A stretch of 58,070 bases of DNA from Gammaproteobacteria bacterium (GCA_027307325.1 DAHUXE010000057.1:1-58070); one strand, 5' to 3'; positions 35,926-51,911 are shown, counted from the first letter of the stretch. The notes: a model not told the origin generated them from the letters alone. Translations and numbers: made by a program.

Positions 35926-35928
35926 GAA

Positions 35929-36414: not shown

Positions 36415-36440
36415 GGGCGGCGCGCTCCGCCCTTAAGATT
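36415..36440 (+). terminator. Weak hairpin GGGCGG-cgcgct-CCGCCC followed by TTAAGATT after secB
   Basis: Read directly; short stem and poor U-tract, so this may only attenuate read-through into gpsA. Confidence 0.3.
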
Positions 36441-36456
36441 CGCCCGGGCTCCCCGC

Positions 36457-37473
36457 ATGACGGCACGCGCACTCGAGCACCCGGTCGCGGTGCTCGGCGC
36501 GGGCTCGTGGGGCACGGCGCTCGCGATCCAGCTCGCGCGCGGCGGGCGCGCGGTGCGCCTGTGGGGACGCGACCGGGAGCGTCTCGCCGCCATGGCGCGC
36601 GAGCGGCGCAACGAGCGCTACCTGCCGAGCGCGCCGTTTCCGGACTCCCTCGAGGTCGAAGCCGGCCTGCCGGCGGCGCTCGCCGCGGCCCGCGATGTCC
36701 TCGTCGTGGTGCCGAGCCCCGCGTTTCGCGGCGTGCTCGGCGCCCTCGCGCCGCACCTCGAGCCCGGGATGCACGTGGCCTGGGCCACCAAGGGATTCGA
36801 GCTCGCGAGCGGCCTGCTGCCCCACCAGGTAGCACGCGAGGTCTTGGGTCCCGAGCGGCGCATCGCGGTGCTCTCGGGTCCGACCTTCGCGCGTGAGGTC
36901 GGGGCGGGACTCCCGACCGCGATGACCGTCGCCTCGCCCGATGCGGCTTACGCCGAAGCGCTCGCCGCCGAGCTCAGCTCCGCGAATTTCCGCGCCTATA
37001 CCTCGACTGACATCATCGGCGTCGAGATCGGCGGCGCGGTGAAGAACGCGCTCGCCGTGGGAGCGGGGCTCTCCGACGGGCTCGGCTTCGGCGCCAACAC
37101 GCGCGTCGCGCTCATCACGCGCGGGCTGAAGGAGATGACGCGCCTCGGCGTGGCGCTCGGCGCCGACGCGCATACCTTCATGGGGCTCGCGGGGCTCGGC
37201 GACCTGGTGCTCACCTGCACCGACGACCAGTCCCGCAACCGCCGCTTCGGCCTGGCGATCGCAGCGGGCGCCACACCCGAGAAAGCGCTCGCCGGGATCG
37301 GCCAGTCGGTCGAGGGCTACGCCGCGGCGCGCGCCATCCGCGCGGTCGCCGCCCGCACCGCCGTCGAGATGCCGCTCTGCGACGTGGTGTACCGGGTGCT
37401 CTACGAGGCTTTGCCGGCGCGCGCTGCGGTGCGCGAGCTCATGAGCCGCCCTCTCAAGGCCGAAGTCGCCTAG
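36457..37473 (+). CDS. gpsA: NAD(P)H-dependent glycerol-3-phosphate dehydrogenase
   Basis: 338 aa; GAGSWGTALA Rossmann motif; GpsA sequence throughout. Confidence 0.95.
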   Translation: MTARALEHPVAVLGAGSWGTALAIQLARGGRAVRLWGRDRERLAAMARERRNERYLPSAPFPDSLEVEAGLPAALAAARDVLVVVPSPAFRGVLGALAPHLEPGMHVAWATKGFELASGLLPHQVAREVLGPERRIAVLSGPTFAREVGAGLPTAMTVASPDAAYAEALAAELSSANFRAYTSTDIIGVEIGGAVKNALAVGAGLSDGLGFGANTRVALITRGLKEMTRLGVALGADAHTFMGLAGLGDLVLTCTDDQSRNRRFGLAIAAGATPEKALAGIGQSVEGYAAARAIRAVAARTAVEMPLCDVVYRVLYEALPARAAVRELMSRPLKAEVA

Positions 37474-37514
37474 ACGCGCAAGTTGCGAAACGAGCGCAAG
37501 CTGCGAAGCTCCCC

Positions 37515-38126
37515 GTGATGCCGCCCGGCGGGTCGTGCGTACTCGGCTTCGCGCCGCACTCGGGGTGGGCGGCGGTGGTCGTCATCGGCGGCACGCCGGC
37601 CAATCCTCTGGTGCTGGCGCGCGAGCGGCTCGAGCTCAGCGATGCGAGCCTCCCGGGAGCGAAGCAGCCTTACCACGCAATCGAGGGGTTGCCGCTCGCT
37701 CAGGCCGCCGCGCGGCTCACAGCGTTCCGCGCCTCGGCGGCGCTGCGTGCCGTGTCGGGGGTGCGCACCCTGCTCGAGACCGCGCGCACCGCGGGCATCG
37801 AGCCGATCGGCGCCGGCATCCTCGACTCCTCGGGGCGCGATGGCGGGTCGCTCGAGGCAATCCTCGCCTCGCACGCGCTGATTCATAGCGCCGACGGCAA
37901 CCACTTCCGCGAGGCGCTCGGGTCCGCCTGCAGCGCCGAGCGGCTTCCCTGCACGCGCATCCGGCAGCGCGATCTGCCTGGCGAGGCCGCGCGGGCGCTG
38001 CGGCGCCCGCCCGAGGCGCTCATGGCGGCGGTGGCGCAGCTCGCGCGCGACGTCGGCTCGCCGTGGGGCGCGGACCAGAAGGGCGCCGCGCTCATCGCCT
38101 GGCTGCTGCTCGCGCGTAGCGCCTGA
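37515..38126 (+). CDS. Hypothetical protein
   Basis: 203-aa ORF with plausible composition; no recognised motif. Confidence 0.45.
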   Translation: MMPPGGSCVLGFAPHSGWAAVVVIGGTPANPLVLARERLELSDASLPGAKQPYHAIEGLPLAQAAARLTAFRASAALRAVSGVRTLLETARTAGIEPIGAGILDSSGRDGGSLEAILASHALIHSADGNHFREALGSACSAERLPCTRIRQRDLPGEAARALRRPPEALMAAVAQLARDVGSPWGADQKGAALIAWLLLARSA

Positions 38127-38147: not shown

Positions 38148-38510
38148 TCAGGGAGTGGGCTTGGGCGCGCCGGCGACCGTGCGGAATACCCTCGCCGGGA
38201 TTGCGCGATTGACCGCGACATCCTCGGCGAAGCGCATCACCCCGCCCTCGGCATTGAGGTCGACGAACGCGAGCGCTTTCAGCAGGCCGTGAAACTGCTT
38301 GGCTCCCGCGTTCACCAGCGCGTAGACCTCCATGGTGCCGAGGCGCGGCCCCTCGAGGTTCTCCTCGATCAGCACCCGCTGGCAGCGCCGCGCCGTGCAC
38401 TCCTGCATGACCTCACGCATGTAGCGCACCACGGTGTCCGCGCTGTTACGCCCCGTGACCGTGGCATGCAGGTATCCCGGCTTCTGCTCGATCTTGAGCG
38501 TGTATGCCAC
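38148..38510 (-). CDS. Hypothetical protein
   Basis: 120-aa ORF (MAYTLKIEQKPGYLHATVTG...); no recognised family. Confidence 0.5.
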   Translation of the reverse strand: MAYTLKIEQKPGYLHATVTGRNSADTVVRYMREVMQECTARRCQRVLIEENLEGPRLGTMEVYALVNAGAKQFHGLLKALAFVDLNAEGGVMRFAEDVAVNRAIPARVFRTVAGAPKPTP

Positions 38511-38529
38511 CCGCGCAACCCTGCTGCGC

Positions 38530-38913
38530 TCAGGCGACGCCGGGGTAGATCTCGTCCGCCACCCAGTAGCAGGTGAGCGCGGCGGCCAGGATCGCGCCGG
38601 CGAGCCACAGCAGCCGGCGCCGCCCGCGCCACGCGGCGCGCAGCGGCGAGTATTGCAGTGGAATGTCGACGAGATACGCGGCGCAATAGCAGGCGTTCGC
38701 GAGCAGCGCGAGCACCGTGAGCGCGCCGAGGGCGCTCAGGGTGAAGGCGCCGCGGAAATGCGGCCAGGTGAACACGACCCAGCCGAGGAAGATCGCGCCG
38801 AGCAGCGCGTTGTAGCCGAGGCGCCGGGGTTCCCAGTAGCGCGCCGCGTCGGCCAGGATTTCCCGCAAGCGCGGCGCTGCCGCCTGTGTCGATGCCGAGC
38901 CGTGAGTCGCCAT
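38530..38913 (-). CDS. Hypothetical membrane protein
   Basis: Start at MATHGSAS; 127 aa; about 4 TM segments. Confidence 0.5.
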   Translation of the reverse strand: MATHGSASTQAAAPRLREILADAARYWEPRRLGYNALLGAIFLGWVVFTWPHFRGAFTLSALGALTVLALLANACYCAAYLVDIPLQYSPLRAAWRGRRRLLWLAGAILAAALTCYWVADEIYPGVA

Positions 38914-38986
38914 GGGCGGACCTCCCGTGTCCACGCTCGAGCACGATGATCCGCCGGTCCGCCGCCGCAACGCGGCGGCGCGATGC

Positions 38987-39715
38987 TCAAAGTCGCCCGA
39001 GGAACGTTGCCGCGAGGCGCAGCACCTCCTCGCGGCGCTCGCGGTGCGGAACGTGGCCGCAGCCCTCGAGGATCGCGGGCTCGCAGGGACCGCCGACACC
39101 CCGCGCAATGCGGCGCGGAAATGCCACCGATCCATACGCGTCGCGGTCGCCGTGGATCACCAGCACCGGGCAGATCACCGCCGGGAGTTGCTCATCGAGG
39201 CTCCACGAGCGAAACCCGGGCGACAGCCACACCTCGGCCCACGCATCGAGCACCCAGCGCGCCTTCGCGCCGTGCCAGCGGCTGAGCCTGGCGAAGTGCT
39301 CGGGACGGTCGAACTCCGCCCGCGCGGCGCGGATCCCCTCGAGGGTCCGTTCCTCCACGTACGCCTGCGCGGCCTCGGTGACGACCGCGACGCACCCGGC
39401 GTGCTCGGCGGCTGCGATCGCGAGCGCCATCGCGCCGCCCACGCTGTGGCCGAGCAGCGCGAAGCGCGTGAGGCCGAGGGCACCCTTCAGGGCGGGGAAG
39501 AATCGCCGCGCCTCGTCCGTCACGAAATCGACGGGCGGCCGCTCCGGGCGCGGCGTGGATCTGCCGAAGCCGAGCCGGTCGTAGGCGATGACTTCCATGC
39601 CCGTCGCGCCCGCGAGCGCCTCCGGGAAGTCCCGCCACTGCTCGACCGACCCGAGCGAGTCATGCAGCAGAACGATCGGCGGGCGCGGGTTGCCGCCGGG
39701 GTTCCAGCGGCGCAC
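38987..39715 (-). CDS. Alpha/beta-fold hydrolase
   Basis: 242 aa; HDSLGS oxyanion region; nucleophile elbow GHSVGG; C-terminal His. Confidence 0.8.
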   Translation of the reverse strand: MRRWNPGGNPRPPIVLLHDSLGSVEQWRDFPEALAGATGMEVIAYDRLGFGRSTPRPERPPVDFVTDEARRFFPALKGALGLTRFALLGHSVGGAMALAIAAAEHAGCVAVVTEAAQAYVEERTLEGIRAARAEFDRPEHFARLSRWHGAKARWVLDAWAEVWLSPGFRSWSLDEQLPAVICPVLVIHGDRDAYGSVAFPRRIARGVGGPCEPAILEGCGHVPHRERREEVLRLAATFLGRL

Positions 39716-39765
39716 GAAAATGCTTCCGCCGGCAAGGCCGACGAGCGCGTCGCGTGCCTCGATGC

Positions 39766-40056
39766 TCAGGCGCCTTCCACGATGCGCAGGTCGCGCTCGA
39801 CGGCGTCCCCGAGGGCGCGCAGCGCTTCCTGGTACGCCGGGCTATCGTGCGCGGCGAGGGCCTGCGCGAGGCTCTCGAACTCGATGAGGACGGTGCGCTG
39901 CGCGAGTCCGCCCTCGTAGACGCGCGCCGGCAGGCCGCGCGCCAGGAAGCGGCCGCCGGCCGCCTCGAGCGCGGGGAGCGCGAGCTTGGCGTACGCAGCC
40001 AGCGCCTGCGGGTCGCGTACCGAGCGGTACGCGGCGATCCAGTATGCTTTAGCCAT
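39766..40056 (-). CDS. DUF1330-family protein
   Basis: 96 aa; MAKAYWIAAYRSVRDPQALAAYAKLA... is typical of DUF1330. Confidence 0.75.
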   Translation of the reverse strand: MAKAYWIAAYRSVRDPQALAAYAKLALPALEAAGGRFLARGLPARVYEGGLAQRTVLIEFESLAQALAAHDSPAYQEALRALGDAVERDLRIVEGA

Positions 40057-40067
40057 GGTGGTAACCC

Positions 40068-40391
40068 TCAGCCCGTCTCGCCTTCGAGTTGCGCAGTCGT
40101 GACCGTCATCAGCGCGAACACGAACAGCCCGACGCTGAGGCCGAGCATCACGACGATGAGCTGGCGCATGCGGTAATCCCAGTCGCGGTTGTCGAGGTAC
40201 ACGGAGACGGCACCCAGCAGGTAGACGTAGCCGATGACGGCGAGCGGCGGCAGGGCCAGCCGCGGACGCGCCCTGAAGGCGGGCCCGACTTCGTGGCGCA
40301 ACAGCAGGAACCAGCCGATTTCCGCGACGATGAGCGCTCCGACCCAGAGATTCCAGCGGCGCAGCGCCGAGCTTTGTGAAGTGACTCGCAT
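40068..40391 (-). CDS. Hypothetical small membrane protein
   Basis: Start at MRVTSQSS; 107 aa; 3 TM segments. Confidence 0.5.
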   Translation of the reverse strand: MRVTSQSSALRRWNLWVGALIVAEIGWFLLLRHEVGPAFRARPRLALPPLAVIGYVYLLGAVSVYLDNRDWDYRMRQLIVVMLGLSVGLFVFALMTVTTAQLEGETG

Positions 40392-40414
40392 GGGTTGATC
40401 CCGCCTTCCGGTCC

Positions 40415-41242
40415 TCACTCGAGAGTTATTCGGCGTGCAGCGCTGCCGCTCGCCAGCCATGGGACGCCGCGCCAGGTCCCGGCGACCAGCCAGGCGCCGC
40501 CGGCGATCGCCGCCGATATGAGGAGCTCCGACCAATTCCCCTCATCGTGGGGGCGCGAGACGACGCGCGGCACCCACACGAGCAGGGTGAAGGTCCAGAG
40601 CATCGCGGCCTCGAGGCTCGCCGCGAGACGCGGCACGACGCCGAGCAGCATGCCGGCCGCGGCCGCGAGACTCGCAGCTCCCGTCAGGTAAGTCCAGCCG
40701 AGCGGAAAGCCCAGCCACTTCGGCACCAGACTCGCGGTGAGGTCGTGGTAGGCGAAGTGGCTGACGCCGATCATCGGCAATGCCGCGATCAGCAGCGCGC
40801 GCGCCGCGCGCACCCCGCTCTCGCCCACGGCGAAAGCGAGGTGGCGTCGCTCCCAGGCGCCCGCGTGGGCCGCGAACAGGCACCAGCCTCCGGCCGACAG
40901 GGCGGCCGTCTCGGCGAACGACTCCCAGCCCACCACGACCTGCGGAGCGAGCAGCAGCGGGGGGAGCTTGAGCAACACCAGCCACAGCAGCAGGAAGGGA
41001 AGCACGATCCGGCAGGCGAGCACGGTGAGCGGGCGCACCGCGAGCGCGAGGCCGCCCGCGAGCGCCACGAGCGAGCACGAGTACATGACGAGCGACCGGC
41101 CCGGCAGGCTCTTGGGGAGCGGCTCCCAGATCCCGGAGGAATTGCCGTAGATCAGGCCGGCGATGCCGAGGCCGGCGAGCGCGGCGGCGAAGGCGGCCCG
41201 GCTCGGCCGGATGGGACTGGCGATGGCTGAGACCACGCCCAA
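40415..41242 (-). CDS. Hypothetical polytopic membrane protein
   Basis: 275-aa hydrophobic ORF with about 8 TM segments. Confidence 0.55.
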   Translation of the reverse strand: MGVVSAIASPIRPSRAAFAAALAGLGIAGLIYGNSSGIWEPLPKSLPGRSLVMYSCSLVALAGGLALAVRPLTVLACRIVLPFLLLWLVLLKLPPLLLAPQVVVGWESFAETAALSAGGWCLFAAHAGAWERRHLAFAVGESGVRAARALLIAALPMIGVSHFAYHDLTASLVPKWLGFPLGWTYLTGAASLAAAAGMLLGVVPRLAASLEAAMLWTFTLLVWVPRVVSRPHDEGNWSELLISAAIAGGAWLVAGTWRGVPWLASGSAARRITLE

Positions 41243-41266
41243 TCATGAACAGCGCCGCGCAGATGA

Positions 41267-41605
41267 TCAATGCGCGCGGGCGGTACGCGGCCTGCGGGAA
41301 TCGCCGGACGGCACCTGGACGCCGTCCTCCGAGAAGAAGATATAACCCCGCGGAGCGCCGAGTAGCCGGTGCCACCAGCGCAGCAGGCCGATGCGGCTGA
41401 TCGTGAGACAGGGGGCGGCGCCGAGATTGCGGACGGCCTCGGCGCTCGCAGCCCAGTCGCAGCGGACCAGCTCCACGGCGCGAGTCTCGGCTTCGACGGG
41501 ATCGCGGGCGCGAAGCTGCACGAGCCGCAGGAAGCCGATGGCCACGTCGCCGGCGAGCGGCAGCGCGATGCCGCGCCCCTGAACTGTTACCTCGTATCTC
41601 GGCAC
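41267..41605 (-). CDS. Hypothetical protein
   Basis: 112-aa ORF with GTG start; no recognised family. Confidence 0.4.
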   Translation of the reverse strand: MPRYEVTVQGRGIALPLAGDVAIGFLRLVQLRARDPVEAETRAVELVRCDWAASAEAVRNLGAAPCLTISRIGLLRWWHRLLGAPRGYIFFSEDGVQVPSGDSRRPRTARAH

Positions 41606-41654
41606 GTTTCAGTTGCCTGGAGCGCAGCGCCGGCGACCTGCGCCGCGGCGCGCC

Positions 41655-42005
41655 TCACCACCGGCTGTTGGTGAGCCGCATGAGCTTCCAGCGCAATTCG
41701 CGGGGCGGCGCCTGCAGGTCCACCGCGACCACCCGCCCAAAGTTATCGAGCTGCATGGACGCGTAGCGCGCATCGCCGAACGCGATCACCTGGCCGGGCT
41801 TCTGCCCTACGACATTGCGCTCCACGGCGTTCAGCACCCGCTGCGCCTCCAGGGCGACCAGGCCCGCGTCGGTCTCCGGGTCGTAACTGACGGCCTTCAC
41901 CGTGCTGCCTTCCAGCTCGCGGGCGAGATCGGCACGGCCCGTCGCGCGCAGCTCCCACGCCAGATCGAAAGCGAGCTCGGGAAAGGCGCCGGCGAAGGAC
42001 CACAT
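41655..42005 (-). CDS. Hypothetical protein
   Basis: Start at MWSFAGAFPELAFDL, preceded by a GGGAGGGAAC Shine-Dalgarno sequence; 116 aa. Confidence 0.5.
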   Translation of the reverse strand: MWSFAGAFPELAFDLAWELRATGRADLARELEGSTVKAVSYDPETDAGLVALEAQRVLNAVERNVVGQKPGQVIAFGDARYASMQLDNFGRVVAVDLQAPPRELRWKLMRLTNSRW

Positions 42006-42026
42006 GGTGAGTTCCCTCCCTGAAAC

Positions 42027-42189
42027 CTGCAACGTAGGACAAGGGTCGAATCTTCCCGCTTCCTGTCCGCCCGAAGGGCACGGGGCAATGATGAGCGGTG
42101 CCCGCGGTGCCACGCAACCCGCTCGCTGCACCGCGGCGCTGCGGGGCCGAAGGGACGCGTGCCCGACCTCACCGATAGTGGCGTTGCAG
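42027..42189 (-). repeat. Candidate divergent or decayed attC (R boxes CTGCAAC / GTTGCAG)
   Basis: 8-bp perfect inverted repeat CTGCAACG...CGTTGCAG; arms weakly resemble the array consensus; lies between two minus-strand ORFs. Confidence 0.3.
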
Positions 42190-42205
42190 ATCGACCGAGC
42201 GGCAG

Positions 42206-42484
42206 TCAGGTCTCGCCACCGGCGCGCCGGCGGTACGTGTCGGCGTCGGCACTGCGGCCGAGCAGCGTCGCGGCCTCGGCCGCCGCGCGCCAGAACGAAG
42301 GCTGGCAGCCGAACAATTCGGCCGCCGTCACCAGCTCAGTGAGGGCGCAGTGGAGCTCGGCCGCCGCGGATCCGGCGCCGACGCTCAGGGCCGGGCGCGC
42401 GCATGCGGCGAGCAGGGACGCCGCCCGCTGCAGATGCGAGGCGGCATCGCCGCACAGGATCTCGTCCCGGTGCACGGGGCTCAT
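42206..42484 (-). CDS. Hypothetical small helical protein
   Basis: Start at MSPVHRDEILCG; ATGA overlap with the upstream ORF's stop suggests translational coupling; 92 aa. Confidence 0.4.
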   Translation of the reverse strand: MSPVHRDEILCGDAASHLQRAASLLAACARPALSVGAGSAAAELHCALTELVTAAELFGCQPSFWRAAAEAATLLGRSADADTYRRRAGGET

Positions 42485-42888
42485 CGGATGCGGGCCCTGG
42501 TGGCGGAGCTCTTCGCAGACTCCTCGCCGTCCCCGAGAGCCGGCGCAATGGCGAGCAATGCACTCAGCCAGGCGAGCAGTGGCACGCTGCATACCACACT
42601 CGCCAGGATGATGACGATCGGGTCCGTAATATGGAGTGCCATCGAGTAGGAATATGGCTCGAGCGGTGCAACGTATGTCCAGAAAATGTACCGGGTCAGA
42701 CGGGCGAGGAATGCCTGCAGCCCGAAACAACCGAGAACGCCCGCCACCAGGAAGCCCGCCCGGAAGCGTAGCTGCTTCCAGCGCAGCGCCGTTGCGCACA
42801 GGGTGAAGGCGAAAGGCCACACGAGGCCGGCCACGGCCAGGATGTGCTCCGTCCTCACGTGTGAGAGCAGCGTTGCGTCTATTCCCAT
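42481..42888 (-). CDS. Hypothetical membrane protein
   Basis: Start at MGIDATLLSHV; 135 aa; 4 TM segments. Confidence 0.5.
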   Translation of the reverse strand: MGIDATLLSHVRTEHILAVAGLVWPFAFTLCATALRWKQLRFRAGFLVAGVLGCFGLQAFLARLTRYIFWTYVAPLEPYSYSMALHITDPIVIILASVVCSVPLLAWLSALLAIAPALGDGEESAKSSATRARIR

Positions 42889-43259
42889 CGATTGGCGTTC
42901 TTCGGAAAGCCGGGCCGCTGGATCCGTACGACGCAGAAGCGCTGGCCGGTAGGCGCCTGCATCACGACCCAACGCTCGAGGCGACTCACCACCGTGGCGC
43001 CCAGCTTCTCGAGGCGCGCCACCTCGGCAGGGATGTCATCGGTCTCGATGTCCAGGTGCACGCGACTGTCGTGGGTCACGCGCTGAATCTGCACGATCGG
43101 CTCGTCCGGTGGGGTCTCGAGCATGCGGTAGTTGCCGCGCGTCCCCGGGTGCGTGGGGTCCATTGCGCGACCCAGTGCCTTTGCCCAGAACCGGGCGGCG
43201 GCGTCCACGTCCGATGTATTGCAATCGATGAGCACTGCGCAAAGACGGGAGTGGTGCAT
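42879..43259 (-). CDS. VOC/glyoxalase-family protein
   Basis: Start at MHHSRLCAVLIDC; 126 aa; VOC-like (VHLDIETDDIPAEVARLEKLGA). Confidence 0.75.
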   Translation of the reverse strand: MHHSRLCAVLIDCNTSDVDAAARFWAKALGRAMDPTHPGTRGNYRMLETPPDEPIVQIQRVTHDSRVHLDIETDDIPAEVARLEKLGATVVSRLERWVVMQAPTGQRFCVVRIQRPGFPKNANRWE

Positions 43260-43504
43260 ATCCGTACCTTCGTGGTGTCCCGGAAATCGGCGCCATGCCG
43301 CGCTGCTCGCCCGTGCGCCGTCCGGATCGCCGCGGGCGGTGGAGAGTACCACCGTAACGAGTGCTTCGAGCCCGCGATGACCGGCGCCCCGCCCGGGAGC
43401 GCCGCTGCGCGGGGGTGCGTGATCCGTAGATTCCCCGACTACCCGGCAGATGTCGGCCTGTGGAGGATAGGACCCAACTGGATCAGCGGTGACGGCTTGC
43501 CAGA

Positions 43505-43723
43505 ATGACCCGGCGGATACCGGCGCGACCCGCACATCCCGAGCGAATCTGCTGGGGCTGCGAGCTCTATTGCGCGGCCGACGACCTGCGCTGCGGCAAC
43601 GGTAAAGAGCGCACTCAGCATCCCATCGAGACCTTCGGGCGGGACTGGATGGAATTCGTTCTCCCCGGAGACGAATACCCGCTAGTCCCCGGGACTCGGG
43701 AGCGGAAAAGCGGCCTGCCGTGA
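43505..43723 (+). CDS. DUF3079-family small Cys-rich protein
   Basis: 72 aa; PAHPERICWGCELYCAADDLRCGNGKERTQHP matches my recollection of DUF3079; the only plus-strand gene in 38-58 kb. Confidence 0.6.
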   Translation: MTRRIPARPAHPERICWGCELYCAADDLRCGNGKERTQHPIETFGRDWMEFVLPGDEYPLVPGTRERKSGLP

Positions 43724-44143
43724 ATCGAGGTAAGACCTCAGTGTGTCCGCATAGGCGTCGCGCGTCGCCTGGTCGGGCTGCGGCGCAAGGCTCGGATACA
43801 CGCGCAGCAGGCCGTCGCCAGGCCTCCGGGGGTGCACGTGGATATGGAGATGCGGCACCTCCTGGCCGGCCCCCGCGCCTATCGAGTGCCACACGCTCAG
43901 CCCCTGATTCGGAAAAGCTGCGCCGACCGCGCGCGTAATGTGCGCGACCGCTGCCATGAGAGCGGCGCCGGTCGCGTGGTCGAGCTCGCGCACGTCGAGG
44001 AGATGCCGCCGGGGAACGACGAGCGTGTGGCCGGCGTGAAACTGGCGCTGGTCCATGAATGCCATGGTGAGGTCGTCTTCCCACACGATGCTGGCGCGCT
44101 GCTCTGCGCGCACGATCCGGCAGAAGACGCATTCCTCGCTCAT
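43682..44143 (-). CDS. HIT-family hydrolase
   Basis: 153 aa; CVFCRI N-terminus and histidine triad HLHIHVH. Confidence 0.85.
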   Translation of the reverse strand: MSEECVFCRIVRAEQRASIVWEDDLTMAFMDQRQFHAGHTLVVPRRHLLDVRELDHATGAALMAAVAHITRAVGAAFPNQGLSVWHSIGAGAGQEVPHLHIHVHPRRPGDGLLRVYPSLAPQPDQATRDAYADTLRSYLDSRQAAFPLPSPGD

Positions 44144-44529
44144 GGGCTGCTCCGCAACCGTGTCTTGATGTCGAGATAGGCCGCGGTGATGAGCGCCTGC
44201 AACGCGGAGGCGTCCACGGTTGTGCCGGGCCGCAGCTTCACGTGGCGCATGTACTTACCATCCCCCTCGAGCAATCCCGCCGGGTCCGGCAGCGTTGCGC
44301 CATGGAAGAACCCGACGTTGACGTGAGCCGTGAAGGCATTGGCGTACGCGAACGCCGCGTCACCCACGCACGCAGTGGGATGGCCGTCATGCAGCAGCTC
44401 CCGCACGTCGGCGCCGCAATCGCGCATTCGAAGGAACCACTCGCGGGCGATCGCAGCGAGCTCGGGCCGCCGGCTCGCGAGCCACGCATCGACCGCGGGA
44501 TCCCGCGCAATGGCGCCCGGGAATCGCAT
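44140..44529 (-). CDS. DUF1801-like protein
   Basis: Start at MRFPGAIARDPAVDAWL; 129 aa. Confidence 0.6.
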   Translation of the reverse strand: MRFPGAIARDPAVDAWLASRRPELAAIAREWFLRMRDCGADVRELLHDGHPTACVGDAAFAYANAFTAHVNVGFFHGATLPDPAGLLEGDGKYMRHVKLRPGTTVDASALQALITAAYLDIKTRLRSSP

Positions 44530-44590
44530 CAGCCTGCTCACGACGACGGCCCCCGGACCATGCGCGGTACGCTCGAGCGCAGGCCGGGCA

Positions 44591-44890
44591 TCACAGCCAC
44601 CGTGAGCTCGCGAATACCAACGCCTGGACGACGAGAGCGGCAGCCGCGCATGCAAGTGCGAGCAGGTTCACCAGCACCCTGGGCTGCCGCACCAGCGCAG
44701 CGGCCGCGAGGCCCGCGGCCACGATCGGGGCCAGGAAGGAGATCACGAGCGCACCGAGCAAAATGCGCCCCGCGCCCGGAATGTACCGGACGTCGAGGGA
44801 CGAGAAGCGGAGCAGAAGAAACAGCAGCCAGACCGCCGCCCAGACCGCGAGGCAGGATAGTGCCGCCGACCGTAACGGTGTCCTGGCCAT
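44591..44890 (-). CDS. Hypothetical small membrane protein
   Basis: 99 aa; 3 TM segments. Confidence 0.5.
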   Translation of the reverse strand: MARTPLRSAALSCLAVWAAVWLLFLLLRFSSLDVRYIPGAGRILLGALVISFLAPIVAAGLAAAALVRQPRVLVNLLALACAAAALVVQALVFASSRWL

Positions 44891-44994
44891 TACGCCACCG
44901 CGACCTCGTGGGAGCCGCGTCTATTCTTCACGCAAAGGCAGATGTGCACGATCGGACTCCAGGACGCGCATCGAGCGCCATACCATTCTCAGGC
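44891..44994 (-). repeat. Candidate decayed attC
   Basis: The right end gcgcatcgagcgccataccattCTCAGGC aligns to the consensus gcgcatcacggccccctccaacgattGTTAGGC; the left end is weak; the next ORF's stop lies in the core-like heptamer. Confidence 0.3.
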
Positions 44995-45720
44995 GGCACC
45001 GAGGACATAGAGCGTCCACGGCGGGATCCGGGTCTCGCTCACCCATTGAACCGGCTCCGCGCCGGTCGCCAGTGGCCTGACGGCGTCGACGACGCGCAGC
45101 CCGGCGGCCTCGAAGAGCTCCCGGTAGCGCGTATCGCTGCACAGGACATCGATCACCGGACGACGGTCCGGCACGTCCAGCATGACGATCCGAACCGCGT
45201 CACCGTCGCGGGCAGCGCGGTTGTCAGGGTAATCACGGGTGCTGAAGGACGCCCACTCGTGGCAGTAGATGGCGGGTGAGGACACTACGGCGAGGAGGCG
45301 ACCGCCTGGAGTGACGAGGAGACGCCGAAGCTCCCGCAGCGCGGAGGTCTTTTCCCGGTCGGTCGGGATGTTGTCGAAAGTAAACGCTGCAAGGACCAGA
45401 TCGAGCGTGCCGGTGCCGAATGGAGCGAGGGTACCGTCGGCAACCAGGCGATAGTCCCCCTGCGGGTCGCGGCCACGGGCCTGCTCGAGCATGAGCTCCG
45501 AGACGTCCACGCCGACCGCTTCGAAGGCCAGGTCCCGCAGGAACCTGGTCGAGCGCCCCGTGCCGCAGCCAAAGTCCAGGGCTCGCGTGCCGCGCACGTG
45601 CTTGCGCAGGAGCGCGGGAATATCGCGAAACGCCAGGTAATACGTGCCCGGGAATTCGAGCTCCGCGTAGGCCCGCGCGCGATCGGCATCGTCGTAGACG
45701 TTGCTGAAGGTCTCTGTCAT
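44989..45720 (-). CDS. Class I SAM-dependent methyltransferase
   Basis: Start at MTETFSNVYDD; motif I LDFGCGTGRST. Confidence 0.8.
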   Translation of the reverse strand: MTETFSNVYDDADRARAYAELEFPGTYYLAFRDIPALLRKHVRGTRALDFGCGTGRSTRFLRDLAFEAVGVDVSELMLEQARGRDPQGDYRLVADGTLAPFGTGTLDLVLAAFTFDNIPTDREKTSALRELRRLLVTPGGRLLAVVSSPAIYCHEWASFSTRDYPDNRAARDGDAVRIVMLDVPDRRPVIDVLCSDTRYRELFEAAGLRVVDAVRPLATGAEPVQWVSETRIPPWTLYVLGAA

Positions 45721-45744
45721 CCGCAGTGCCCCCGCCAACACTTC

Positions 45745-46215
45745 TCAGACCGCCTGCTCGAGCGGCGTCCACCGTTGTTCGCGTCTCCCGAGGCGCTCGC
45801 CCAGGCCTTCGGCATCGTAATCCGCCAGTACCGCCGCGGGGAGCTCCGTCGGGCGCGGCGTCATCGCCCGCGTATTGATGATGCCAAAGGCGCCGCGAGG
45901 AATCTCAATTTGCGCGCCGATGTAGACACCGCAAGCGCTGCATACCAGGAAGTCCGCAGTCTTCAGGCCGAAACGATATCGCCGCAGTGACTCCCCACGC
46001 TCGACGCGAAACGTCAGCCGCCCACCCGGATCGGAGGTGGTGACCGCGCCGTGGGCGCGACAGAACCGACACTGACAGGCGCGGACACTCCACTGCGCTA
46101 CCGGCAGCTTCGTGTGAAAGGCAAAGCCCAGTGCGCCGCAGTGACAGCTGCCGGCAAAGGTATGCGGGGCTGCTAGATGATCCACCGTGGCACCTTGGCT
46201 CGGTATGCTTCCCAT
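45745..46215 (-). CDS. GFA (glutathione-dependent formaldehyde-activating/CENP-V) family protein
   Basis: Cys clusters CHCG, CQCRFC, CSACG; start uncertain because it overlaps the upstream gene's end. Confidence 0.65.
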   Translation of the reverse strand: MGSIPSQGATVDHLAAPHTFAGSCHCGALGFAFHTKLPVAQWSVRACQCRFCRAHGAVTTSDPGGRLTFRVERGESLRRYRFGLKTADFLVCSACGVYIGAQIEIPRGAFGIINTRAMTPRPTELPAAVLADYDAEGLGERLGRREQRWTPLEQAV

Positions 46216-46622
46216 TCCGCTCCGAACTTGCCGGCCGCCCAGGGCTCTTCTGCCACCAGAACCCTTAGGTGAACCGCAGCCATCACCACCAGCGTATAGA
46301 TGAGCAGGGCGCGCGAGCCCCAAAGCACACTCCAGCCGATCAGAATCGTAACCACGGCCACGTACATCGGGTTGCGAGAGAGCCGATAGGGTCCGGTGGT
46401 CACCAGTTGTCTGGGCGGAGCCCACGGCGCCAGCGTCCCGCGCCCCGCCACGTAGAATTCGCGCACGCACCACAGCAGCAGCAGCGTTCCCAGGCAAACG
46501 ATCGCGATGCCGCTGGCCCCATGTTGCACGGGGCGACCCGCTGAAGTCCCGATCGCGATCGGCGCTGCGAAAGCGACCACGCCTGGCAGTGCGACAAACG
46601 CGGCGATGGCACGGATCAGCAT
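46173..46622 (-). CDS. Isoprenylcysteine carboxyl / phospholipid methyltransferase-family membrane protein
   Basis: Start at MLIRAIAAFVAL; LVTTGPYRLSRNPMYVAV motif. Confidence 0.7.
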   Translation of the reverse strand: MLIRAIAAFVALPGVVAFAAPIAIGTSAGRPVQHGASGIAIVCLGTLLLLWCVREFYVAGRGTLAPWAPPRQLVTTGPYRLSRNPMYVAVVTILIGWSVLWGSRALLIYTLVVMAAVHLRVLVAEEPWAAGKFGAEWEAYRAKVPRWII

Positions 46623-46645
46623 TCGAATTTCAGGACGACCGAGCG

Positions 46646-46924
46646 CTACCTCGCGGGCATGACGTGTCCCGCCGCTTCGGGCTCCAGGCGTACCCACTTA
46701 CCCTTGCGTCGGGCCATCAGGTAGCCCGTGACGGTCGGCTGCGCACCGAGTCTGGTCAGTTGCGAGTTGGCTCCCGTCACGACGAAGCCCGCCTCTGCCG
46801 TCAGCGGAATCCACGCATCGGCGGCGACACCTTCGGGCCGTGCGCCATCGGGATGTGCAGACGCGAGAGACAACGCGAGCGCCAGCACTAAGCCAGCCAC
46901 GGCAAAACCTGCTGTCCGCTTCAT
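46646..46924 (-). CDS. Hypothetical secreted protein
   Basis: Start at MKRTAGFAVAGLVLALALSLASA (signal peptide); 92 aa. Confidence 0.45.
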   Translation of the reverse strand: MKRTAGFAVAGLVLALALSLASAHPDGARPEGVAADAWIPLTAEAGFVVTGANSQLTRLGAQPTVTGYLMARRKGKWVRLEPEAAGHVMPAR

Positions 46925-46994
46925 GTGCGAAGCTCCATGGGGGTGATCAGCACAACGACCTTGTCTCGCGTGAGAGAGCACGGGGCCACCGCTA

Positions 46995-47255
46995 CTACAC
47001 CTGATCATCCGGGGGTTCTTTCGTGGCCAGGTACGTCAGCTCAGCGTCCGACACCTGCGCTTCTGAGAGCAACCGTCGCGCTCGGTGCAGCAGCTCCGAC
47101 GGCACGACAACCGAAAAGAACAAGCCCAGGCCGGGCAGATGCTCGTCAGAGACGATCCGAGCCGGCACATCACCCTGCGCGAGAAGGCCGAGTACGGCCT
47201 CCGCCGAAATGCGGTCGGGGTGCGTGACAACTTCGCTCCAATCGTCAACCGGCAC
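46995..47255 (-). CDS. DUF2007-like (putative signal-transducing) small protein
   Basis: 86 aa; resemblance is from memory only. Confidence 0.5.
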   Translation of the reverse strand: MPVDDWSEVVTHPDRISAEAVLGLLAQGDVPARIVSDEHLPGLGLFFSVVVPSELLHRARRLLSEAQVSDAELTYLATKEPPDDQV

Positions 47256-47290
47256 TGAACTGCTCCCCTGCTCTCTGACGACGAGGTCGG

Positions 47291-47671
47291 CTAGCGCGGT
47301 GCGTCTTTGAGCTCAACCGCATAGTAGTGCGCCTCGGTCTTGCCAACGTTCTCCCCCGAATGGGTAACGGCATCGCGCCATAGCACATCCCCGGCGTGCG
47401 ACGGGTACGCAACGACGGCGCCGCTCGGCAGAGTTGTCCTTACGATCGCGTCAGCGAGCGCGAAAACGACCCCCGGCGGGTGCGAATGCATGGGCTCTTT
47501 CCCACCTGGCTTCAGGCGGTACTCCAGCACTCTGACACGATCATTTTCGAAGCGCACCGAGTAAAGCTGCGGAGACAGGGCGACCGGATCAAGCGTCGGT
47601 GCCGACTCGGCAACTGCAGCCACTATCGCGGCGCAAGCAGCGCCGAGCGTGAAGTCTCTCAAGCGAACCAT
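47291..47671 (-). CDS. Secreted cupin-domain protein
   Basis: Start at MVRLRDFTLGAACAAIVA; cupin motif PMHSHPPGVVF...H. Confidence 0.7.
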   Translation of the reverse strand: MVRLRDFTLGAACAAIVAAVAESAPTLDPVALSPQLYSVRFENDRVRVLEYRLKPGGKEPMHSHPPGVVFALADAIVRTTLPSGAVVAYPSHAGDVLWRDAVTHSGENVGKTEAHYYAVELKDAPR

Positions 47672-47716
47672 GAAATGTGCCCTCCCGCAAAGATGCACGA
47701 GCTACATCGAGCAGAC

Positions 47717-47822
47717 GCCTGACGGTGGAGCCGTCTCATTGATCCGACGGCGTACGCACCGTCCCCCGGTATGGCCCTGCTGCCCAATCACGCATCACGG
47801 CCCTCTCCAGCGATCATCAGGC
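47717..47822 (-). repeat. Decayed attC of the array family (cores mutated: GCCTGAC ... ATCAGGC)
   Basis: Left arm gcctgacggtggag matches gcctaacggtgaag at 12 of 14 positions; right arm cgcatcacggccctctccagcgatcatcaggc matches the consensus at about 28 of 32; the DUF1272 gene's stop lies in the core. Confidence 0.7.
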
Positions 47823-48065
47823 AGCATCCGCACAGCCTGCGGGCTTCACGACGCGTTCAGTCGACGCGGGATATCGCGAGAGCTTGTCGGCAGGACGGCG
47901 CGGCCGAGCCATGAGCTCCCCGCCACAGTTCGGGCATACACCCTTCAGGACCTGTTCCGCACAGGACCGGCAAAAGGTGCACTCAAGAGAGCAAATGAAC
48001 GCGTCCGAAGACTGCGGCGGAAGGTCTCGATCGCAACATTCGCAGTTTGGTCTAAGTTGAAGCAT
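47817..48065 (-). CDS. DUF1272-family zinc-ribbon protein
   Basis: Start at MLQLRPNCECCDRDLPP; multiple CxxC pairs. Confidence 0.75.
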   Translation of the reverse strand: MLQLRPNCECCDRDLPPQSSDAFICSLECTFCRSCAEQVLKGVCPNCGGELMARPRRPADKLSRYPASTERVVKPAGCADAA

Positions 48066-48121
48066 TGCGTTTACTCCAGATGCAGGTGGCACCACGGCCA
48101 ATTTCCCAATGGCCTGTAGAG

Positions 48122-48937
48122 CTAATGGATGCGCTGCGCAAGCTGCGTAAAGTGCGCCGAGAGCTCCGCGATGTTCGATGGAATGGCATGCTTATGAGGC
48201 GTGTACCCGGGCAGCATCGTGCGCGCACGCATGCCAAGACGGCTGGTCGCAATCAGTGCCCTCTGCCTCACGGTGATGCGGCAACGCACGCCGTGTCGGG
48301 CCACGTCGGCCGACGACATGAGCCCCGCGCAATCGGCGATGAACCGGAACATGTGATGTTGGGAAACCCAGCACATGCGTGCCCGATAGAGATAGTCACC
48401 ATACAGGTGCTCATAGACATCGAAAGCGACGTTGCGATGCTCGACCTCCTCAAGCATGTGCCACTTGAACAGATCACCAACCGCGCGCACGGTATGGCGA
48501 TGGTCATACAGGCCGCTCGCGAGGGTGCGCAGCGCGAACTGGGTAGTGAAGGACTCAAAGCCCTCGATATAGCCGATCCGGAACCGATCGCTCCTGTTGC
48601 CCAGGAACCCCTCGAAGTCCCGCCTTAGCATCTCGACGCGCTGTTCCAGCCCAGGATAGCCGTGCCTGAAGACGGCCTTGTTGAAATCCATATGGCGCCT
48701 GTAGTGCTGGGCCTCCTGACGTGAGAAGCGATCGGCGTCCTCACGGAGCGCCTCATCGCGGATCTGGTCCATCACTCGGCGTAATGACTTGACGAAGAAC
48801 GGCTCCAAGTACGCTACGTACAACCCGGTCGCCAGCAGGGTGTAGGACAGTACCGAGCTTCCTGCGACGCACAGTGGGTGAAATTCGTCCGCACTGGGCA
48901 CGGCGAACTTCATCTCTCGCACGGTGATCGGGTGCAT
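48122..48937 (-). CDS. Predicted metal-dependent hydrolase (DUF2236/PF10118-like)
   Basis: Start taken at the second Met (MHPITVREMKF); EAQHYRRH and EEVEHRNVAFDVYEH motifs; the longer ORF to 49021 would run into a degenerate attC. Confidence 0.65.
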   Translation of the reverse strand: MHPITVREMKFAVPSADEFHPLCVAGSSVLSYTLLATGLYVAYLEPFFVKSLRRVMDQIRDEALREDADRFSRQEAQHYRRHMDFNKAVFRHGYPGLEQRVEMLRRDFEGFLGNRSDRFRIGYIEGFESFTTQFALRTLASGLYDHRHTVRAVGDLFKWHMLEEVEHRNVAFDVYEHLYGDYLYRARMCWVSQHHMFRFIADCAGLMSSADVARHGVRCRITVRQRALIATSRLGMRARTMLPGYTPHKHAIPSNIAELSAHFTQLAQRIH

Positions 48938-49007
48938 GGCGCTCCCGGGATTTCCCGACGCGGCACTACACAGGGGAGTAAGAGTAGTGGCAGCGAAGTC
49001 TGCGCGT

Positions 49008-49120
49008 GCGGTAGCGGTCATGCAAGCGGGCCCCTTGAGCCGAGTCAGATCCCGCTCACACGCTGGGGACCCGAGGCGCCCGCCCGCAGAGGCGTCACGC
49101 GCCCAAAACGATTGTTGGCG
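49008..49120 (-). repeat. Degenerate attC (terminal or decayed)
   Basis: The right half cccgaggcgcccgcccgcagaggcgtcacgcgcccaaaacgattGTTGGCG aligns well with attCs 55056-55177 and 57362-57555; the left half (ggtagcggtcatgcaagcgggcccc) matches only weakly. Confidence 0.45.
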
Positions 49121-49132: not shown

Positions 49133-49250
49133 GCCTAACGGTGACGGGCCGGCCGACCACGTGTCATAGGGCCGTGGGCCCGCAATATCGACCGGATCTT
49201 ACTGCGCCCAACCACCGGCGCATCAGGTCCCCTCCAATTGACTGTCAGAG
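49133..49250 (-). repeat. attC site (118 bp)
   Basis: GCCTAAC-ggtga...ccaattgact-GTCAGAG; the centre matches the 'cccgcaatatcgac' subfamily. Confidence 0.85.
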
Positions 49251-49394
49251 CGTATTGCCCTTCCGACGTTGGCGCCAGCGGTAGATCGCATAACCAACAA
49301 TTGAAGCCGGCACGCCGTAGCTGGACCAAACCATCGTTGCCACGAGATCCCATCCCAGGGGTGCCTCGGCGCTGGGGTGAAGAAGTGGTGACAT
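49245..49394 (-). CDS. Possible 49-aa membrane peptide (cassette ORF below the ORF-track size cutoff)
   Basis: My translation: MSPLLHPSAEAPLGWDLVATMVWSSYGVPASIVGYAIYRWRQRRKGNTL; the TGA stop lies in the attC core. Confidence 0.25.
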   Translation of the reverse strand: MSPLLHPSAEAPLGWDLVATMVWSSYGVPASIVGYAIYRWRQRRKGNTL

Positions 49395-49400
49395 GAGTGC

Positions 49401-49538
49401 CTACGCCAGAATGTACGAGACCAAGACAGGGGCGACTAACGCCAGGCACAGTCCCAAAGGCATTAACCGAAGCCGACCGCAGAGGTAGCCCGCGAGGATT
49501 GAAGCTGCACAGACGATGGCGATGCCAGCTGGGAACAT
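49401..49538 (-). CDS. Possible 45-aa two-TM peptide (cassette ORF below the ORF-track size cutoff)
   Basis: My translation: MFPAGIAIVCAASILAGYLCGRLRLMPLGLCLALVAPVLVSYILA; the ATG is 5 nt from the attC core. Confidence 0.3.
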   Translation of the reverse strand: MFPAGIAIVCAASILAGYLCGRLRLMPLGLCLALVAPVLVSYILA

Positions 49539-49543
49539 AGGCG

Positions 49544-49668
49544 CTCTAACGGTGAGGCTGAGGGGCCGGCCGACCACGCCAAACAGGGGCCGCGGGCCCG
49601 CAATCTCGACTGGGTCCCGCCGCGTCCAACCAACAGCACATCACGGCCCCCTCCAATGCCCGTTAGGC
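49544..49668 (-). repeat. attC site (125 bp)
   Basis: CTCTAAC-ggtgaggctgaggggccg...catcacggccccctccaatgccc-GTTAGGC. Confidence 0.9.
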
Positions 49669-49685
49669 GTTCGACCCACTCAGCT

Positions 49686-49973
49686 TCACCTTATTCCCGG
49701 GCGATGCGCCAGAAACACGGCCAAAGCGAAGAGCAGAAGGAAGAGCCAGCCCATCGCAGCAATGGCGATACCCGGAGTATGGGAGTCGATCTGATACCCC
49801 CGGTACCAGGCACCGAACGTTAGGTCATCAATCTGCTGAGGAAACCAAATCAGAGTGAGCAGCGGACCACAAACCAGCGTCACGATCCAAAATCCGTTGG
49901 GGATCGACCACGCACGTACGTACGCCACCGCGACGACGATGAGAGACAGTACGCGCGAAAGGCTGATCGTCAT
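49686..49973 (-). CDS. Cassette: hypothetical 3-TM membrane protein
   Basis: 95-aa ORF filling the interval between two attCs; ATG 5 nt from the core. Confidence 0.6.
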   Translation of the reverse strand: MTISLSRVLSLIVVAVAYVRAWSIPNGFWIVTLVCGPLLTLIWFPQQIDDLTFGAWYRGYQIDSHTPGIAIAAMGWLFLLLFALAVFLAHRPGIR

Positions 49974-49978
49974 CGAGC

Positions 49979-50066
49979 GTCCAACGGTGAAGTTGCGGGG
50001 CCGGACGACGGTCCCGCGGCCCCAAACAGACCACGCCTCACGGCCCCCTCCTCACTAGTGTCGCCT
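49979..50066 (-). repeat. attC site, short variant (~88 bp) with a degenerate distal core
   Basis: GTCCAAC-ggtgaagttgcggggccg...cctcacggccccctcctcactaGTGTCGC. Confidence 0.7.
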
Positions 50067-50390
50067 CTCTGCGCGTTTATGCGCCTCGGTCAGTGCGGCA
50101 ATTACCTGAGAGAGCGTCAGAATGTCGCGTTGAACCTCGCGCTCCGTGTGAGGAAAGACTGCGGCCTCAACCTCAGGATGCTTCGAGTCATGCGCCGCGT
50201 CTGTTACAGGGCCACGCCACGAATGCGAAATCGTGTCCTGAAAGTAGTAGACGACCGATGCCGGATCATCATCGGGAAAGATATTCGTGCCGACGTAGAT
50301 CATTGGCTGTACGCCCGGAATAGTGAGGCCCTCATCCGCGAAGGTAAGGCGGTAGTAAGCAGTGCCCTCTTTAAGTTGTGCAGGCGCCAT
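50055..50390 (-). CDS. Cassette: hypothetical soluble protein
   Basis: 111-aa ORF between attCs; no recognised family. Confidence 0.6.
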   Translation of the reverse strand: MAPAQLKEGTAYYRLTFADEGLTIPGVQPMIYVGTNIFPDDDPASVVYYFQDTISHSWRGPVTDAAHDSKHPEVEAAVFPHTEREVQRDILTLSQVIAALTEAHKRAERRH

Positions 50391-50397
50391 GAGTGCG

Positions 50398-50522
50398 TTC
50401 TAACGGTGAAGTTGAGGGGCCGGCCGACCACGTGTCACAGGCGCGGCGGGCCGGCAATATCGGCTGGGACCCACCGCGCCTGACCACTTACGCATCACGG
50501 CTCCCCTCGACGATGGTCAGGT
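50398..50522 (-). repeat. attC site (125 bp)
   Basis: TTCTAAC-ggtgaagttgaggggccg...gcatcacggctcccctcgacgatg-GTCAGGT. Confidence 0.9.
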
Positions 50523-50834
50523 GACGCGCCCAAGCTGGCGCTCCCGTAGATACAGAAACAGCGGAAAGCCGCAGCTGACGCCAATCAAGCAAGTAGCCGC
50601 TACAGGCAGCCAGAGCATACCGATCTTACGCCGCCTCCCTTCACTGAAGATGAAAACGAGCAGGACCAGAGCGGAAACGATTGCGTCCAATCCAAAGAAT
50701 GCGCTGACGTGGCCGAGAAACAATTGCGTGAAGAGCAAGCGAACGTTCAGGCCGTGCTCGACGAGCCATGGGACGAACTGGGAGTACGGCAGAAGGGTGC
50801 CAAGAACAGCGAGCAAGAGGTACAGCCAGCGCAT
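50517..50834 (-). CDS. Cassette: DUF2834-like small membrane protein
   Basis: Start at MRWLYLLLAVLGTLLPYSQFVPWLVEHGL, with its own GAGGTG Shine-Dalgarno sequence; 105 aa. Confidence 0.65.
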   Translation of the reverse strand: MRWLYLLLAVLGTLLPYSQFVPWLVEHGLNVRLLFTQLFLGHVSAFFGLDAIVSALVLLVFIFSEGRRRKIGMLWLPVAATCLIGVSCGFPLFLYLRERQLGRVT

Positions 50835-50885
50835 GGGAAACACCTCAGCGACAAATTGAACGGCGGCTTCACCGCAAAGCGCGGC

Positions 50886-51345: not shown

Positions 51346-51358
51346 CAGGATTCGTGGG

Positions 51359-51483: not shown

Positions 51484-51498
51484 AGCATGTGCATATCG

Positions 51499-51801: not shown

Positions 51802-51804
51802 GCT

Positions 51805-51910: not shown

Positions 51911-51911
51911 G

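Follow-up and report, generated by a model that had tools for sequence, protein, structure and literature searches.

A run of small genes between gpsA and a cassette array as the probable eroded end of a sedentary chromosomal integron in an uncultured lineage of Steroidobacteraceae

Gene content of the locus downstream of gpsA

The locus examined here is a run of small genes lying between the housekeeping gene gpsA and an integron cassette array in the genome of a Gammaproteobacteria bacterium (GCA_027307325.1, DAHUXE010000057.1:1-58070). The whole stretch of 58,070 nt that was analysed is called the window. It belongs to a metagenome-assembled genome (MAG) of 2.98 Mb in 199 contigs with a GC content of about 70%, and its host is an uncultured, high-GC lineage of the Steroidobacteraceae from soil and sediment. 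The genome of the window is referred to as G000; other G numbers denote related genomes, L numbers loci of relatives and C numbers contigs. An earlier note on this DNA had suggested that the run is the eroded distal part of the integron, composed of old cassettes whose attC sites have decayed.

From position 38148 to 49021, an uninterrupted run of 22-23 open reading frames (ORFs) occupies the minus strand, on which the cassettes also lie; the plus strand of this interval holds no convincing gene. The co-orientation described in the earlier note was thus confirmed, as was the small size of the genes: the ORFs have a mean length of 143 and a median of 127 aa, while the genome-wide median is 323 aa and none of the 264 backbone windows of 22 genes had a mean below 262 aa. 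Elsewhere in G000, co-oriented runs do not exceed 17 genes. All 22-23 ORFs combine the orientation of the array with a small, tightly bounded reading frame, as live cassettes do. The proposed mixture of families was largely recovered with Pfam, which assigned DUF1330, Glyoxalase_6/VOC (ORF at 42879-43262), HIT, DUF1801, SAM methyltransferase, GFA, PEMT/ICMT and DUF1272 as well as alpha/beta hydrolase, DoxX-like, DUF2007 and PF10118; the claimed cupin reached only a sub-threshold match (E 0.019). A stretch of 419 nt within the run holds a doubtful ORF of 60 aa.

On the left side, the yibN-like rhodanese, SecB and GpsA genes of the conserved flank that had been named before were recovered, but the run does not follow the flank directly, a plus-strand gene being interposed (Table 1). 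Among the relatives, this gene is present only in the closest ones, G005, G004 and L021, with 65-79% aa identity. Neither tRNA genes between 30 and 58 kb nor recombinase or transposase domains among the Pfam matches were found, and the locus thus lacks the boundary marks of an island (tRNA, integrase, insertion sequence). A chimeric contig was considered as a source of the layout and rejected because several independent MAGs, including contigs of 0.6-4.3 Mb, show the same arrangement.

Table 1 Features of the window from the M23 peptidase gene to the contig end. GC3 is the GC content at third codon positions; R1 and R2 are the attC covariance models described in the text
Feature	Coordinates	Strand	Basis
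Fixed backbone flank: M23 peptidase, rhodanese (yibN-like), SecB, GpsA	34021-37473		Pfam; collinear DNA in relatives; GC3 0.85-0.92
203-aa gene between gpsA and the run	37515-38126	+	Pfam: no family
g01, g02, g03 (alpha/beta hydrolase)	38148-39715	-	GC3 0.88-0.89, 42nd-59th backbone percentile
DUF1330, g05, g06 (DoxX-like), g07, g08; probable former cassettes, fully ameliorated	39766-42006	-	GC3 0.83-0.91; dN/dS 0.07-0.37
Non-coding spacer of 199 nt; putative attC or deletion scar	42007-42205	-	Left end aligns with left arm of an L021 attC
g09A, g09B, VOC, 419-nt stretch, HIT, DUF1801, g13, SAM methyltransferase; intermediate tier	42206-45718	-	GC3 0.76-0.82
Half-attC, R''-L'' arm alone left, abutting the GFA stop codon	45721-45750	-	Right-arm matrix 9.6 bits
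GFA, PEMT/ICMT-like, g17, DUF2007, g19; probably recently fixed, still cassette-like	45745-47698	-	GC3 0.67-0.74
Decayed full-length attC, both cores mutated	47718-47822	-	R1 25.6 bits (E 8e-5); R2 25.0 bits; right arm 31 bits
DUF1272 and PF10118 metal-dependent hydrolase; last unit, two genes between degraded attCs	47817-49021	-	Pfam; GC3 0.59 and 0.75
Degenerate attC directly adjoining the first good attC	48990-49120	-	R2 15.1 bits (E 0.075); R1 9.1 bits
Live cassette array, 17 attC sites, running off the contig	49134-58070	-	Repeat families; imposed-structure pairing; R1 E 1e-36 to 1e-7

attC sites of the array and their remnants in the block

From position 49134 to the end of the contig, families of repeats about 105-190 nt in length return at intervals of 300-1600 nt. 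An alignment of 12 of them did not yield the attC fold with RNAalifold; the structure was then imposed by hand and checked by pairing. With the R-box, L-box and inner stem imposed on these 12 complete sites, 83% of the cells were paired, against about 40% when the partners were slid. The extra bases of the sites are located in the 5' arm of the minus strand, which shows that the top strand of the attCs is the minus strand and places the cassette ORFs on it. A covariance model (R1) was built from the 12 complete sites, and a genus model (R2) from 89 attCs aligned from the window and nine related loci, with the relic at 47718 kept outside the training set. Both models were briefly calibrated and the scans run with filters off; under these settings R1 recovered every site of the array.

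The integron integrase is encoded on contig C62, where it matches TIGR02249 with 435 bits, above the cut-off, and four attCs adjoin it; its reading frame is open (414 aa, no internal stop). Two more attCs are carried by contig C194. The integron piece on C62 appears to join the array of the window, the contigs being separate in the assembly. With about 9 kb of array in the window, the further attCs on C62 and C194 and 8-9.5 kb contributed by the block, the proposed integron length of at least 20 kb holds.

Several observations concern the attCs of G000 at large. The start codons of the cassettes between 49686 and 57974 are located 1-8 nt past the GTTAGRC core and have no Shine-Dalgarno motif in 10 of the 10 cases checked. 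At 57380-57505, about 12 copies of a 9-nt tandem repeat (CCGAGGGCG / CCGATGGCG) occupy the centre of one attC and extend its length to 193 nt. At 55610-55700, a half attC with a perfect left arm (36 bits) and a missing right arm is found within the live array, so arm loss occurs in the active part as well. Single attC-arm matches of at least 12 bits outside the integron contigs were obtained on C3, C42, C132, C137, C149, C161 and C192; these could be isolated remnants of attCs or could have arisen by chance.

Remnants in the run itself were sought with the covariance models and with position matrices for the two conserved attC arms, for which 2011 backbone genes scored in the expected register served as null. 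The relic that the earlier note had placed at 47717 was recovered (Table 1); it folds poorly (z -1.1). The half-site at 45721-45750, absent from the earlier note, exceeded all 2011 null genes (maximum 3.5 bits) and was the best match in the window outside the array; this relic at the GFA stop is common to G000, G005 and L021 (16.6 bits in L021). At the border of the array, the right-arm remnant of the site at 48990-49120 reads CCCAAAACGATTGTTGG. An in-register attC remnant beside an ORF is clear for GFA (45721) and DUF1272 (47718), is indicated for g08 by the L021 alignment alone, and was found for none of the others. A foldable attC directly 3' of an ORF, as live cassettes have, was found for no gene of 38148-47700; what is left are the remnants at 45721-45750 and 47718-47822.

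The remaining candidates of the earlier note fared less well. The possible relics at 44891 and 42027 received no support: the former had neither covariance-model support nor an arm-matrix score better than in the backbone genes, and at the latter (42027-42189), likewise without covariance-model support, the left end alone is homologous to a real attC. Of the ORF stops located in core-like heptamers, those at 39765 and 44988 were no better than in the 2011 backbone genes (p 0.17-0.20), and only the one at 42205, within the arm at 42182-42211, was mildly unusual (p = 0.0065). Weak R2 matches in the block, with an 11:2 excess of minus over plus strand, were set aside as a probable effect of coding-strand composition.

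The locus in related genomes

The window was compared by DNA search with 20 related genomes, 12 of which belong to the same genus. All 12 preserve the flank (34012-37479) in collinear form, and the block differs in every genome: it matches the relatives in patches, with gene order and content changing by single-gene steps. The expectation of variable content beside fixed flanks was thereby borne out, and presence and position vary gene by gene as former cassettes would. The layout proposed for G000 recurs on a single contig of the near-complete G001 assembly, where gpsA is followed by about 11-14 kb devoid of attCs, then by an attC array and by intI, the latter 22 kb from gpsA. Arrays downstream of gpsA were also found in G004, G010, G011, L021, L022 and L027. 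The presence of arrays at this position in many congeners implies that the integron at the locus predates the genus, and the TIGR02249 integrase beside an array at the same genus-wide locus is what a sedentary integron displays.

The closest relative, G005 (backbone dS, the synonymous divergence, about 0.2-0.3), is collinear with the window from DUF1330 to GFA but departs from it in three respects. The methyltransferase and the 98-nt spacer on its 3' side (44891-45718) are missing as one unit; in the blocks of G004 and G003 the methyltransferase occupies other positions. G005 carries an extra gene of about 140 aa within the counterpart of the 199-nt spacer (42007-42205), and it keeps TTCTAAC at the left end of this spacer, upstream of the g08 start codon. 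In place of g01-g03, G005 has a GNAT gene homologous to the live cassette c53134 of the window. In G004, PEMT has moved to a position between g06 and g07 (GC3 0.87), and three window cassettes have attC-less homologues just past the last attC. The attC-less block of G003 spans at least 18 kb and contains both block genes and homologues of cassettes, again arranged differently; the gene order of L021 is wholly different from that of the window block. The distance of DUF1330 from gpsA varies from 0.5 to 6.5 kb, and in the window DUF1330 and g07 are separated by g05 and g06, an insertion when compared with G010 and L021.

For six block genes, g05, g07, g08, VOC, GFA and DUF2007, homologues with flanking attCs or attC arms were found in relatives. 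The product of g08 shares 80% aa identity with that of an L021 gene flanked by attCs of 31 and 59 bits, and in a four-genome alignment the homology continues beyond the ORF into degraded counterparts of these attC arms. At the former core position, where L021 and G005 have a GTTAGAA core, g08 now has GGAGGG, 9 nt before the ATG. Among the fixed genes, the gain of a Shine-Dalgarno motif (GGAGG) is clear for g08 only, start codons being uncertain. The VOC gene shows 82% nt identity to a G012 cassette between attCs of 102 and 101 bits, with the homology confined precisely to the ORF. In G010 and L021, GFA is enclosed by attC arms; DUF2007 adjoins its own attC in a second, integrase-less array of G001, g05 of G003 is bracketed by relic left arms of 20.2 and 12.6 bits, and g07 and DUF1330 lie between weak attCs in G010, with GC3 values of 0.54 and 0.58. 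The opposite state was observed as well: homologues of the live cassettes c53134, c49686, c57528, c55184 and c56573 are attC-less in the blocks of relatives.

Further attC-bearing or array-less loci were encountered among the relatives. The second array of G001 (L013:7814-16459; G001:C2, about 2.596-2.604 Mb) is a cluster of 15 attCs, 280 kb from the only intI of that genome, with homologues of PEMT and DUF1330 on one side and of DUF2007 on the other. The cluster probably arose by translocation of part of the array along with its eroded end. G004 carries a second integron platform (G004:C120:217-4288) with four attCs, in which a frameshift divides intI into two parts (2911-3564 and 3566-3841); just downstream of intI lies a VOC homologue with 81% nt identity. 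In G007 (L028/L017) and G009 (L016), which have no array at the locus, GFA-like and c57528-like genes follow right after gpsA. G007 has no intI match above the family cut-off and a lone attC-like site of 28 bits 6.7 kb downstream. The gpsA-side genes of these two genomes may be the ghost of a lost integron.

Composition of the block and its probable origin

The GC3 of the backbone is 0.876 ± 0.045 (n = 2086), and the array cassettes average 0.643. Within the block, GC3 falls toward the array (Spearman -0.85, p 4e-7) in three tiers of 0.83-0.91 at 38.1-42.5 kb, 0.76-0.82 at 42.5-45.7 kb and 0.67-0.74 at 45.7-47.7 kb. The intermediate tier corresponds to the 2nd-12th backbone percentile, with g09A (0.89) and the doubtful 60-aa ORF (0.69) as outliers; the genes at 45745-47698 are below the 1.2nd percentile, and four of these five end with TAG. 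The usage of this stop codon splits in the same manner as GC3. The trend recurs in nine relatives, in which the GC3 of homologues rises with distance to the nearest attC from 0.66 (<0.6 kb) through 0.74 and 0.84 to 0.86 (>5 kb; rho 0.72). It also persists inside gene families (r 0.66, with GC3 rising by 0.11 for each tenfold increase in distance; permutation p 2e-4). DUF1330, for example, has a GC3 of 0.58 inside the G010 array and 0.93 beside gpsA in L027, and GNAT 0.65 as a cassette of the window and 0.91 when fixed in G005. Composition is set by position, not by family. The mobile-to-fixed gradient proposed in the earlier note is thus matched by a monotonic change from cassette-like to backbone-like composition.

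The ratio of nonsynonymous to synonymous divergence (dN/dS) against G005 and G004 is 0.07-0.37 for block genes and 0.13-0.31 for the backbone. These values indicate that the block genes are maintained. For the gpsA-proximal block genes, dS against G005 equals that of the backbone. The block genes have been inherited vertically since the split from G005 and G004.

Taken together, the block is probably the eroded, domesticated distal end of an old, genus-wide sedentary chromosomal integron downstream of gpsA, and the run, over 9-10 kb, likely consists for the most part of former cassettes that lost their attCs, were kept under selection and are drifting toward host composition. The central proposal of the earlier note, old cassettes with decayed attCs, is in this respect supported by the relatives and by GC3, with the qualification that the attCs appear to have been largely deleted. 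According to known integron behaviour, new cassettes would be inserted by IntI at attI, on the side of the array remote from gpsA, so that older cassettes would lie toward gpsA. Mutation or, more often, partial or complete deletion of an attC would make excision by IntI impossible and fix the gene in the chromosome; remnants of this step are seen at 47718 (a decayed site), at 45721 (a half-site) and at 42007-42205 (a probable scar). Useful genes would then be kept by purifying selection, as their dN/dS shows, and their synonymous sites would drift from a cassette-like GC3 (~0.64) to that of the host (~0.88). The gradient itself is observed; read as elapsed time, it would make the genes at 45.7-47.7 kb recently fixed, those at 42.5-45.7 kb intermediate and those at 39.8-42.5 kb fully ameliorated.

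How far this erosion extends toward gpsA can be questioned. Only the part from about 42.2 to 47.7 kb might be cassette-derived, with 38.1-42.2 kb representing accessory backbone that adjoins the integron. GC3, codon score and stop-codon usage are all backbone-typical in 38.1-42.5 kb, neither covariance models nor arm matrices detected an attC relic in 38.1-42.2 kb, the synonymous divergence from G005 is the same for DUF1330 to g07 as for the backbone, and g01 adjoins the backbone in five genomes or loci (G004, G003, G008, G012 and L024). However, L021 carries g08 as a cassette between attCs with which the g08 flanks of the window can be aligned, relic arms enclose g05 in G003, DUF1330 and g07 belong to the array domain of G010 with cassette-like GC3 (0.54-0.58), g05 and g06 were inserted between these two genes relative to G010 and L021, and in G001 DUF1330 travels together with PEMT beside the integrase-less attC cluster 280 kb from gpsA. 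We regard this narrower extent as unlikely. Among the outermost genes, no attC arm was found beside g01-g03 in any relative, and homologues of g03 occur at variable positions, with GC3 values of 0.66-0.70 in G003 and L024. The genes g01-g03 (38148-39715) may be the oldest fixed cassettes or true backbone. Given their backbone composition, the lack of cassette evidence and the synteny of g01, the left edge of the block may lie nearer 39.7 than 38.1 kb.

The direction of gene flow could also be reversed, the attC-less genes being the raw material from which cassettes are made, a nursery rather than a graveyard. The same families are indeed found in both states, and backbone-adjacent homologues of c57528 occur in the array-less loci of G007 and G009, the former also without an intI match above the family cut-off. 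Yet cassette copies have a GC3 of 0.54-0.75, far below the host, while new cassettes derived from host genes should start near 0.88. The remnants are truncated and mutated forms of the array consensus, which fits decay and not construction, and three genomes have one of them, the half-site beside the GFA stop, in common. A nursery is accordingly very improbable, and the low GC3 of cassette copies together with the truncated relics points to a flow from cassette to fixed gene. There is likewise only a slim chance that the attC-less zone is a place of two-way exchange, in which cassettes lose attCs and neighbouring host genes gain them; the families in both states and the c57528 homologues beside the backbone leave not every family polarised. 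If such an exchange took place, the long-sought site of cassette genesis would be the distal end of sedentary integrons.

Several results weigh against an origin of the block from cassettes. Scans of 38148-47700 with R1 and R2 gave no attC signal above backbone level: the density of R1 matches (about 1 per kb at E<=10) equals that of 38 kb of backbone, and the best match in the block scored 11-18 bits (11.4 bits with R1), the best in the backbone 17-25 bits. Taken alone, this largely negative scan, which the earlier note had proposed for 38-49 kb, would fail the idea beyond 45.7 kb. A stretch inside a 759-aa backbone ORF (33404-33531) reached 25 bits with R2, equal to the relic at 47718; this match is in all likelihood spurious, and with these models an E-value around 1e-4 is therefore not trustworthy alone. 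Most block spacers are shorter than 60 nt and leave no attC-sized remnants, so the attCs would have been physically deleted, not just mutated. Loss mostly by deletion is assumed rather than observed, with palindrome-mediated deletion as its presumable route. The loci examined yielded no attC-flanked homologue for at least 11 genes (g01-g04, g06, g09, HIT, DUF1801, g13, methyltransferase and PEMT), and DUF1330 is directly attC-flanked in 0 of 10 genomes. The composition of 38.1-42.5 kb cannot be distinguished from that of the backbone, and the GC3 gradient could reflect an effect of position instead of time. The differing gene orders of the attC-less blocks require independent fixation in each lineage or another rearrangement mechanism. 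Finally, all genomes compared are MAGs, and some contigs end within the block.

Part of these results would suit an ordinary variable region, a hot spot of recombination or transfer that never was an array and shares small-gene families with it by coincidence. Direct attC scans are negative across 9.5 kb, the genes are tightly packed without attC-sized gaps, and the GNAT, VOC, DUF1330 and methyltransferase families are widespread. Coincidence does not account well for relics in the exact expected register at 45721, at 47718 and in the flanks of g08, for the high identity of g08 (80% aa) and VOC (82% nt) to cassettes of relatives, for the strict co-orientation with the array and gene sizes unlike the backbone, or for a composition gradient anchored on the array in ten genomes, and the locus has no tRNA, integrase or insertion-sequence boundary. 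We consider such a region improbable and retain the eroded integron end as the explanation of the block.

The integron resembles the Vibrio superintegron and the Xanthomonas integron (downstream of ilvD) in its genus-wide fixed chromosomal position by a housekeeping gene. It shares with these sedentary integrons homogeneous, lineage-specific attCs in a long array, small, promoterless, co-oriented cassettes mostly of unknown function, and an IntI that matches TIGR02249 above the cut-off; unlike them, it resides in an uncultured, high-GC host of the Steroidobacteraceae. Gillings and colleagues (in 2005) reportedly attributed cassette fixation in Xanthomonas to intI inactivation, which freezes whole arrays. 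In the present locus, by contrast, the intI frame is open, and fixation would proceed gene by gene from the distal end via attC loss. In the amelioration model of Lawrence and Ochman, foreign genes drift to the base composition of the host with residence time. GC3 would serve as a clock here as it does there; unlike in general amelioration, the genes are in spatial order along one locus, and the trend is replicated in ten genomes and within families. Clusters of attCs without an integrase (CALINs; Cury et al. 2016, PMC4889954) are comparable as products of integron decay or rearrangement, and G001 carries one with 15 attCs. A CALIN keeps its attCs and has no integrase; the present block is the converse, with genes kept and attCs lost, contiguous with a complete integron.

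The locus does not represent a new class of mechanism, as sedentary integrons, CALINs and freezing by intI loss are already known; a graded distal loss of attCs with amelioration was not found described in the full-text literature searched. Integrons are usually treated as stores of mobile genes, and the turning of cassettes into permanent genes has been assumed, not documented, with the freeze of a whole array at the death of intI as the only well-described route of fixation. The locus and its counterparts in about ten congeners offer an unusually clear natural series of ordered, gene-by-gene stages, from the live cassette through the damaged attC, the half-site and the attC-less gene with cassette composition to the host-like gene under purifying selection, from which a testable estimate of the rates of cassette fixation and amelioration is possible. 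The families DUF1330, GFA, VOC, PEMT-like and GNAT are repeatedly retained. Tools of the IntegronFinder type would miss the attC-less block, and attC-based tools thus undercount the share of the genome that arrived through the integron.

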